Of a DNA stretch of 64,000 nucleotides, positions 1,561 through 1,660 are shown piece by piece. A model generated the notes under the pieces. That model worked only from the letters and a program-made list of their open reading frames with translations, was not told where the DNA came from and did no database searches. Position numbers and translations under genes: made by a program. Numbering within the stretch: position 1 is the stretch's first letter; every line of letters starts with the position of its first letter. Source of the stretch: Escherichia phage PhiR41_1. The stretch lies in sequence record PV340561, one strand, 5' to 3'.

Positions 1561-1660
1561 GGTCTGGGAGCTTATTTTAAAGACCTGCTTCTGTATATAA
1601 ATAATAAATAACTTATTAAATATATATACAGAAGCAGGCTTAATAAGACATGCCCAGACC
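1561..1660. repeat. long imperfect palindromic element, copy 1 (arms CCTGCTTCTGTATATA / TATATACAGAAGCAGG, outer arms GGTCTGGG / CCCAGACC)
   Basis: Inverted repeat read directly; a second inverted copy occurs near 31110-31185. Confidence 0.8.

Follow-up and report, generated by a model that had tools for sequence, protein, structure and literature searches.

A conserved three-copy palindromic element of SSU5-type phage-plasmids and its candidate role as a terminator or insulator hairpin between transcription blocks

The nearest analogues of the repeated palindromic element described here, which occurs in two copies (A and B) in a stretch of 64,000 nucleotides of Escherichia phage PhiR41_1 (sequence record PV340561; hereafter the window) and, in relatives, in a third copy (C) outside the corresponding region, are the intrinsic terminators and the PeSL cassettes, to neither of which it belongs by sequence. 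Like intrinsic terminators, copies B and C combine a GC-based hairpin straight after a stop codon with a T-rich tract on the coding strand. Unlike them, the element has a stem of ~25 bp with a long AT-rich upper part, nested in an outer stem (~100 nt in all), lacks a U-tract at A, and keeps one sequence at three sites and across genera, whereas the ordinary terminators of one genome share no sequence. In phages of the T7 group, several similar long hairpins processed by RNase III stand between the gene blocks of a polycistronic transcript, an arrangement that recalls A, B and C; these sites differ, however, in that their internal loop is of a characteristic kind and that no DNA palindrome is kept over the two strands. 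In T4-type phages, PeSL cassettes are repeated, near-identical intergenic stem-loops beside a promoter, which act as exchange points between unrelated genes (PMC2839356, PMC4122927). Copy B resembles them in placing a stem-loop and a promoter-like site at the border of hypervariable cargo, and the copies of our element likewise swap halves. PeSL cassettes, however, are many and lie inside hyperplastic regions, whereas A, B and C are three fixed and conserved copies between core modules, much longer and more palindromic, unrelated in sequence and from another phage group.

Palindromes that act as duplex DNA offer a second set of comparisons. The replication origins OriS and OriL of herpes simplex virus are palindromic and AT-centred, and phage SPP1 has the duplicated origins oriL and oriR. 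These systems share with A, B and C the GC-richer arms around an AT-rich centre and the presence of several copies with one recognition sequence, one of them near replication genes; the resemblance is in design only, and A and B show no skew signal. The nearest precedent at the DNA level is the phage-plasmid N15, in which SopB binds four dispersed palindromic centromere sites, IR1-IR4, including sites in lytic-gene regions (PMC7205306). Here too, a few copies of one palindrome are scattered over a phage-plasmid genome, but the N15 sites are compact (~16 bp) and have a known binder, whereas the arms of A, B and C stand ~35 nt apart around an AT-rich centre, and the latter are not members of that family by sequence.

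SSU5-like phage-plasmids are very common in Enterobacteriaceae and include pMT1 of Yersinia pestis, pHCM2 of Salmonella Typhi and many plasmids of Klebsiella and Escherichia coli; some bear resistance genes, and the regulatory architecture of the group is essentially uncharted. The similarity of the first 8 kb of the window to Escherichia phage CMS-2020a (97%), to Cyrano (93%), which is plasmid pLF82 re-annotated, and to Salmonella phage SSU5 (81%) identifies it as an SSU5-type phage-plasmid. Our comparative analysis revealed that the three-copy palindromic element is real, conserved and undescribed within the searched literature, no description of it having been found in that on SSU5, pHCM2 and pMT1.

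The inner palindromes of A and B follow the shared pattern CCTGCTTC(Y)G-(TA)n-AATAATAA(R)TAACTTATTAAA-(TA)n-C(R)GAAGCAGG, with a GC-rich 10-bp base (CCUGCUUCYG/CRGAAGCAGG, written as RNA) and an AT-rich centre, and each is self-complementary at 48 of its 55 positions. Of the inverted pairs that a repeat finder listed for the window, the longest joins 1575-1642 to 31113-31180, with arms of 68 nt that are 87% complementary and separated by 29,470 nt. As DNA, copy A (1559-1665) folds into one hairpin of ~100 nt with a free energy of -27.8 kcal/mol (z-score -10.4, none of 200 shuffled sequences folding as well), while the region of B (31085-31200) reaches -19.8 kcal/mol on the plus strand and -22.7 kcal/mol on the minus strand (z-scores -5.7 and -8.0, respectively). 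As RNA, the inner hairpins of A and B attain -24 to -27 kcal/mol on either strand (A, -24.9 on plus and -26.3 on minus; B, -24.3 on plus), and with C included (-22.4 and -17.9 kcal/mol) the z-scores range from -5 to -8, those of A and B being about -8. A chance origin of the A and B palindromes is excluded. They are the only copies within the 64 kb, and no Rfam 15 family was detected at gathering threshold anywhere in the window. An earlier note on this DNA had located both palindromes from the letters alone, and sequence, repeat finder and folds agree with the places that it gave.

The same note counted two copies, which is correct for the window and incomplete for the genome. With B alone as a BLAST query, the best match in SSU5 (78,304-78,368) was neither A nor B and fell between an N6-adenine methyltransferase gene and the following open reading frame (ORF). 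This copy C has the same composite anatomy, consisting of GTCTGGGAG, a spacer, CCTGCTTCCG...CAGACGCAGG and CTTTTTAAGACG, followed by CTCCCAGACC. In the closest relative, CP054387, it lies ~29.9 kb before window position 1, corresponding to ~79.4 kb on a 109-kb circle, with spacings of ~29.5, 48 and 31.5 kb between the copies around the circle. The window and the C locus of CP054387 together span the whole genome, with exactly three copies, if the two are collinear as the matches suggest. The proposal that A and B bracket the whole virion, lysis and partition block consequently gives only a partial picture, because C lies beyond the window.

To compare the element across the family, conserved anchors were used to gather unique sequences from IMG/VR (38 of A, 50 of B and 33 of C), and fetched plasmids and phages were added to this set; for Y. 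pestis pMT1, the A region only was compared. The A-region query matched 831 plasmids of PLSDB, among them 341 from Klebsiella, 237 from Escherichia, 91 from Enterobacter, 62 from Yersinia (pMT1) and 49 from Salmonella (pHCM2), and a protein-based search of genome contigs returned five loci, one of which was distant (Xenorhabdus). The positions of A, B and C are all occupied in Escherichia, Salmonella (SSU5, pHCM2), Klebsiella, Enterobacter and Cronobacter; both copies known from the window are conserved in relatives, neither being kept alone. Identity amounts to 92-93% in the arms and 83-92% in the AT-rich centre, compared with 58-76% in the adjoining 14 nt on each side. Palindromic pairing is maintained as well, with 90.8% of cells paired versus 30-50% in slid-partner controls, and compensated arm states were found (CCG/CGG, CTG/CAG, CCTGTTTC/GAAACAGG and CCTGCGTC/GACGCAGG). 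In pHCM2, B is a perfect 49-bp palindrome.

As judged from these alignments, A, B and C evolve in concert. Identity of the core between sites (84-87%) is close to that within a site (86-92%), and paralogues are sometimes closer than orthologues: in the E. coli lineage A equals B, the B of the SSU5 lineage has a different right half, and orthologous B copies differ between lineages, while the A and B cores are identical at 55 of 55 positions in four genomes. The right arm CGGAAGCAGG is nearly invariant and the left arm is variable. Arms that are chimeric between sites were also observed: CCTGCGTCTG, known as the left arm of A in Klebsiella, and CAGACGCAGG, the right arm of SSU5-type C, pair perfectly in one C variant only. 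The distant Moellerella plasmid pW18-2-b carries a different, lineage-specific palindrome (CCTAGCTCCCATA...TATGGGAGCTAGG) at all three orthologous positions, with the same altered arm in all six instances, differing from the enterobacterial arms apparently by one insertion and one deletion. Its CCTAGC/GCTAGG corresponds to CCGTGC/GCACGG of the Xenorhabdus B copy, where the arms are compensated (CCGTGCTCCCATAA/TTATGGGAGCACGG). The likeness of the Moellerella arms at all three sites, the chimeric arms and the likeness of paralogues point to gene conversion or recombination among the copies as the process that may keep them alike, with or without a common reader. In the same plasmid, lone left arms (CCTAGCTCCCATA with AT-rich sequence) occur in two other intergenic regions (L014, ~22046; L224, with ~7922 and ~39774 listed), and 17 nt of the nrdA coding sequence match the right arm exactly.

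The clearest directional signal is the T-rich plus-strand tail after the inner stem. Within a 9-nt tail, B has on average 5.66 T on the plus strand (minimum 4, n=50) and C has 5.67 (minimum 5, n=33). The tail sequences vary by lineage (TCTTTTAAAAG, TCTTTTTCTATG, TTTTTTTATAC, TCATTTTCGAC, CTGTTTTGTATC and CTTTTTAAGAC), so that T-richness itself is what is conserved, and in the distant relatives the stem of B is followed by TTTTTCTTT in Moellerella and by a T8 run in Xenorhabdus. A and B both form a stable RNA stem with a GC-rich base, as an intrinsic terminator does. The terminator role, one of the candidates that the earlier note had listed, fits B and C, with their GC-based hairpin, conserved plus-strand T-tail and location mostly right after a stop codon, but not A, which has no U-tract on the plus strand.

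We therefore tentatively regard A, B and C as hairpins that act as terminators or insulators at the ends of three transcription blocks, as gene-converted copies of one another and probably with a sequence-specific reader. In this proposal, the paralogous hairpins of ~100 bp would stand at the 3' ends of gene blocks in a mostly rightward-transcribed genome: A past the block with the ParB-like, ABC-ATPase and 88-aa-ORF genes and ahead of the packaging and virion operon, B past the partition and cargo block and ahead of the replication operon, and C past a block of nucleotide-metabolism and methyltransferase genes. Once transcribed, the element would fold into a long RNA hairpin (-18 to -27 kcal/mol). 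At B and C, hairpin and immediate U-rich tract would terminate transcription or strongly attenuate read-through and would cap the upstream mRNA; termination at B would insulate the next operon, which may be served by its own promoter-like site just downstream. A would be a tail-less copy in the leader of the small terminase gene (terS), acting in pausing or processing and not in termination, and the true terminator-like hairpin of this region would be the one ~80 nt further on, just before terS. Occasional gene conversion would keep the copies alike. A sequence-specific reader, either a protein or an RNase, probably acts on the inner palindrome too, since the latter is conserved beyond the need of a plain terminator. 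The coordinates are given in Table 1.

Table 1. Positions of elements A and B, of their parts and of neighbouring features in the window.
Feature	Position	Strand	Description
Element A, full composite palindrome	1561-1660	none	Outer inverted repeat, spacers and inner palindrome; from sequence and fold
A outer inverted repeat	1561-1568 / 1653-1660		GGTCTGGG / CCCAGACC; outer CCCAGAC pair located by motif search
A inner 55-nt palindrome	1584-1638		CCTGCTTCTG-(TA)n-AATAATAAATAACTTATTAAA-(TA)n-CAGAAGCAGG
Element B, full composite	31085-31194	none	Outer TTCTGG (31085-31090) / CCAGAA (31189-31194), spacers, inner palindrome
B inner 55-nt palindrome	31117-31171	+	CCTGCTTCCG...CAGAAGCAGG
B T-rich tail	31172-31183	+	TCTTTTAAAAGA; immediately past the B stem, U-tract of the terminator-like site
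88-aa ORF	1292-1558	+	phrog_900; "DNA binding domain containing protein" in the Cyrano annotation
Small terminase (terS) / DNA-binding protein	1756-2388	+	First gene past A
Canonical terminator-like hairpin	1716-1747	+	GAGCGC-N6-GCGCTC and TGTGTGTTTTAG, between A and the terS start codon
GIY-YIG (LEM-3-like) ORF	30234-31001	-	Lineage-specific cargo adjoining B on the left
249-aa ORF	31279-32028	+	phrog_2500; first gene past B, then DnaB-like helicase and primase
Promoter-like TTCCAA-17 nt-TATCAT	31215-31243	+	Conserved block between B and the first ORF of the replication module; predicted from sequence

The gene context agrees with a position at block ends. A starts 2 nt past the stop codon of the 88-aa ORF, which closes a plus-strand block of ParB, ParB-like, ABC-ATPase and ABC/acetyltransferase genes, and terS begins 96 nt after A, followed by the TerL and portal genes. 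The stop codon of a plus-strand gene precedes the outer stem by 2-7 nt, in the window at A and in SSU5 at both B and C. Upstream genes are transcribed towards the element at A and, in SSU5, Cyrano and pJN2-26, also at B, where the left neighbour is a plus-strand gene with its stop codon abutting the outer stem. The canonical terminator-like hairpin between A and terS, which ends 9 nt ahead of the start codon and is kept in all enterobacterial relatives, suggests attenuation or antitermination control of the packaging operon, as it would stand right before the first late gene. At B, the layout is that of a terminator followed by a promoter, with the hairpin, the T-tail and then TTCCAA-17-TATCAT. 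The block that holds this promoter-like site is conserved in all relatives, and a consensus promoter scan requiring 4 of 6 matches per hexamer missed the site. Replication genes do follow B, as the earlier note had it, but between the partition genes and B lies the minus-strand GIY-YIG ORF, and B does not directly follow the partition block.

This ORF occupies a slot that holds DUF2971 or other genes in relatives. Homology to most of them starts precisely at the left edge of the inner palindrome of B, and the sequences that meet B from the left, always exactly at |CCTG, are of at least 16 unrelated kinds. The shared edge and the varied left contexts mark B as the invariant right-hand limit of a cargo hotspot that lies between partition and replication genes, and the slot left of B is a hotspot for cargo or homing endonucleases. 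With hairpin, T-tail, TTCCAA-17-TATCAT and these left contexts, B recalls a PeSL-type cassette; the element has only three copies, of which A and C flank conserved genes. Apart from the GIY-YIG domain, the neighbouring ORFs yielded nothing informative on function in Pfam and PHROG scans.

Several observations weigh against terminator or insulator hairpins. Of the first 9 nt in the tail of A (CTTAATAAGA), 3 are T, and the mean for A over relatives is 2.9 on the plus and 3.9 on the minus strand; in the Klebsiella lineage the arms of A are truly mismatched (CCTGCGTCTG / CGAAAGCAGG). For lack of a U-tract and because of these mismatches, A is not a canonical terminator. In the window, B has a minus-strand gene as its left neighbour and terminates nothing obvious but read-through of the par operon across an antisense gene. 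A consensus terminator scan called neither A nor B, both of which have unusually long stems and loops. Neither strand is consistently favoured by the pairing: RNA folds better on the plus strand for B (46 of 50) and on the minus strand for C (17 versus 4), and pairing of this kind fits a duplex-DNA palindrome equally with an RNA hairpin. Finally, arms and centre are more conserved than the flanks and B of pHCM2 is perfect, neither of which a generic terminator needs. Asymmetry between G·U and C·A pairs was also tried as evidence specific to RNA and set aside: B favoured the plus strand, but C was reversed and A mixed.

Recognition of the palindrome as duplex or cruciform DNA by a protein of the phage-plasmid, such as a global regulator, a centromere-type binder or an origin-binding protein, is possible though doubtful. 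A sequence-specific binding site at A, B and C is possible since the arms and the centre outconserve the adjacent 14 nt and the arms co-vary at the three Moellerella sites. The near equality of identity between and within sites, the single arms elsewhere in pW18-2-b, the pairing with no consistent strand bias and the perfect palindrome at B of pHCM2 are in line with such a site, as are the location of B directly upstream of the helicase and primase module and the end of the operon with ParB, ParB-like and 88-aa-ORF genes at A, the ParB-like genes lying upstream of A. The genome also codes for SbcCD-like, RuvC-like, UvsW, UvsY and gp32-like proteins, and N15 provides a precedent for dispersed palindromic sites. 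Possibly, an origin-binding protein opens the AT-rich centre, with a link to the SbcCD-, RuvC- and UvsW-like recombination proteins. On the other hand, the arms stand ~35 nt apart as opposed to the compact 13-18-bp sites of ParB, KorB and SopB, and a DNA-binding role leaves the T-tails at B and C and the placement next to stop codons unexplained; in addition, gene conversion alone can yield concerted evolution. As to an origin, the GC-skew profile gives no support, since neither A nor B coincides with an inflection, the minus-strand ORF excepted. The outer CCCAGAC repeat was also tried as a dispersed binding site and rejected, not being enriched; degenerate YCCAGAM is enriched but spread over coding sequence and is uninformative.

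A more specific form of the DNA-level proposal is unlikely: A, B and C would be programmed DNA-structure sites, either AT-centred lytic origins, in design like OriS and OriL of herpes simplex virus, or cruciform or hairpin substrates of the phage SbcCD/RuvC/UvsW/UvsY machinery, with A also serving as the virion end. In the cruciform variant, cutting by the SbcCD-like, RuvC-like, UvsW and UvsY proteins would launch recombination-dependent replication. Such sites would account for the conservation on two strands, the restored symmetry, the exchange of half-elements, the spacing of ~30, 48 and 31 kb and the break of the SSU5 record described below. Hairpin telomeres were rejected, as no telomere resolvase gene is annotated in the two fetched stretches of Cyrano (31-108 kb) and the records of related plasmids are circular. 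A separate set of repeats lies at 59919-61590, where an iteron-like sequence, ACCGCTGACAGCATA, occurs in at least 10 copies in two clusters ~1.2 kb apart (repeat families D3, D5 and D6). By comparison with the RepA gene of Cyrano, the clusters probably flank the plasmid replication gene, and this region would be the plasmid-mode origin, distinct from A and B.

It is quite unlikely that A is, or is part of, a cos- or pac-like packaging site read by the terminase, with B and C as accessory sites or relics of paralogous origin. A has its centre ~145 nt ahead of the terS start, where cos and pac usually lie, and the gap up to terS holds two direct repeats, AAACAAGTTG(G/T)TT. Moreover, the GenBank record of SSU5, which derives from virions, is cut open within A, 11 nt to the right of the centre; joining the ends restores the plasmid sequence exactly, and the assembly is unbroken at the similar hairpins B and C. 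However, A is the most perfect hairpin in SSU5, and an assembly break is an alternative cause of this end. Among the record starts tried as evidence of termini, only that of SSU5 is informative, since the Cyrano record apparently copies the SSU5 start and the p4727 record starts at a gene ATG. Against packaging also stand the three near-identical copies per genome, with B and C as well conserved as A. The nearest solved structural relatives of TerL, P74-26 and T4 gp17, do not point to a cos enzyme and do not decide between cos and headful packaging. In the same interval, the motif AGAAAACAA(G/T)TTG(G/T)TT, with a palindromic core AAACAA-N-TTGTTT, occurs twice between A and terS (1675-1715). 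Members of this AGAAAACAA family (D7) are also found at 32037-32067, 44650-44680 and 58327-58357, just upstream of the ribosome-binding sites of three genes, including that of the helicase; the motif may be a shared regulatory or translational operator.

Neutral or selfish repeats resembling REP or MITE elements, which would serve only as recombination points between modules, are a very unlikely explanation. The family is small, its cores and flanks have been flipped in evolution, its copies form arm chimeras, and the many unrelated contexts abutting B at |CCTG would suit a recombination point. Correlations of identity across the element are also lower than those of control blocks (A, 0.40 versus 0.96 and 0.54; C, 0.75 versus 0.90 and 0.82), a weak signal of mosaic boundaries, since different genes evolve at different rates. 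Yet the element keeps the same three positions in genera of Enterobacteriaceae and in Moellerella (Morganellaceae), and the B position also in Xenorhabdus; its cores outconserve their flanks, its T-tails are conserved, and there is neither copy-number expansion nor a transposase.

That the AT-rich palindromes are promoters, possibly divergent, of the three downstream operons is highly improbable, even though each copy lies ahead of a major rightward block, the centre holds -10-like TATAAT/TATAAATA strings and the nearly invariant right arm contrasts with a variable left arm. Matches to the sigma-70 consensus are weak at A (9 of 12) and absent at B, a better promoter-like site lies downstream of B, and in Cyrano the B core is flipped with gene layout unchanged. 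The annotation of the fetched Cyrano stretches (31-108 kb) includes neither an RNA polymerase of the phage nor a late sigma factor of T4 type. Two specific candidates were discarded: the T4-type late promoter TATAAATA, present in A and B, is not enriched (4 in the window versus 2.3 expected) and is flipped in Cyrano B, and a promoter for a single-subunit RNA polymerase, suggested by the similarity of Moellerella ACTATGGGAGC to T7 ACTATAGGGAGA, lacks an annotated polymerase gene in the same Cyrano stretches.

The opposite orientation of A and B, on which the earlier note had based a possible inversion of the intervening segment, does not hold for the cores. In the window, these match better directly (51 of 55) than inverted (48 of 55), and with 12-nt flanks the two alignments are nearly equal (63 of 79 direct, 64 of 79 inverted). 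What is inverted from A to B is the flank motif TTTTAAA(A)GAC alone, and since the element itself is palindromic, its orientation hangs on a few asymmetric bases. Among relatives in which the copies could be paired, the direct match of the A and B cores is better in 13 of 13, with 55 of 55 positions identical (versus 48 of 55 inverted) in four. Individual cores do flip in evolution, at times together with the spacers: with flanks unchanged, Cyrano B carries its core as the reverse complement of the form seen at B in SSU5 and in the window. A comparison of the SSU5 lineage with that of Klebsiella shows A flipped over its entire inner part, the left flank GTTTGAGAG becoming the right CTCTCAAAC and the central G becoming C. 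Such flips are ordinary behaviour of hairpin-forming repeats and need no function. No inversion isomer was found in 35 viral contigs holding both anchors, the terS-side and replication-side anchors, one on either side of B, being on the same strand in 35 of 35, and gene order is collinear in 8 of 8 fetched plasmids or phages. No recombinase gene adjoins either site, A being flanked by the 88-aa ORF and terS, and B by the GIY-YIG ORF and the phrog_2500 ORF. Hence, although two similar sites with inverted flank motifs do bound a discrete block, site-specific recombination between A and B that inverts the 29.5-kb virion, lysis and partition segment is, as far as assemblies show, effectively refuted by the direct cores, the uniform arrangement of relatives, the three copies in place of two and the lack of a neighbouring recombinase. 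An integrase-like ORF ~11 kb from B (42642-43745; 367 aa), whose size and position fit the Cyrano integrase, has its own near-perfect 41-bp palindrome at 42507-42547 (20-nt arms, 95% complementary, 1 nt apart), ~95 nt upstream. This palindrome is a better candidate than A and B for site-specific recombination, e.g., dimer resolution.

Other motifs of the window were noted in passing. Palindromes of the form TAAGT-N4-ACTTA number 6, counting the tip of B, versus 0.46 expected, and are found at 5149-5162, 9740-9753, 46812-46825 and 57185-57198, with an N8 form at 34691-34708; the tip of B, TAAGT-A-ACTTA, has the same half-sites at a different spacing. Several of the sites lie between TTGAAA/TTTAAA -35-like and TATNAT -10-like hexamers, centred near -22, a layout that recalls the late promoters of P1, where Lpa binds a 9-bp inverted repeat (PMC10695390). 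A second dispersed intergenic motif, ATAAGTA, often (G/A)ATAAGTAAG(T/C)A, occurs 20 times versus 6.75 expected (e.g., 16233, 31256, 35567, 52394 and, on the minus strand, 62567), most sites being 30-45 nt upstream of start codons. In the tail-fibre region (21600-24150), in-frame direct repeats with periods of 21, 42, 189 nt and others (families D1, D2, D4 and D12) are typical of repetitive fibre domains. A low-GC island at 38000-42000 (0.35 versus ~0.46 elsewhere) overlaps an 826-aa ORF (38790-41270), and no tRNA genes were found in the window, while Cyrano has three at the corresponding place; this is a lineage-specific replacement.

In genomes of this type, a conserved three-copy punctuation marks the borders of the packaging and virion block, the replication block and a third gene block, and one of the copies also borders a cargo hotspot. 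A, B and C thereby provide testable landmarks for the transcription compartments of the SSU5-like phage-plasmids in plasmid as against lytic life. If it is true that they exceed terminators and take part in origin function, packaging or protein loading, they would offer a handle on the switch from plasmid to phage.

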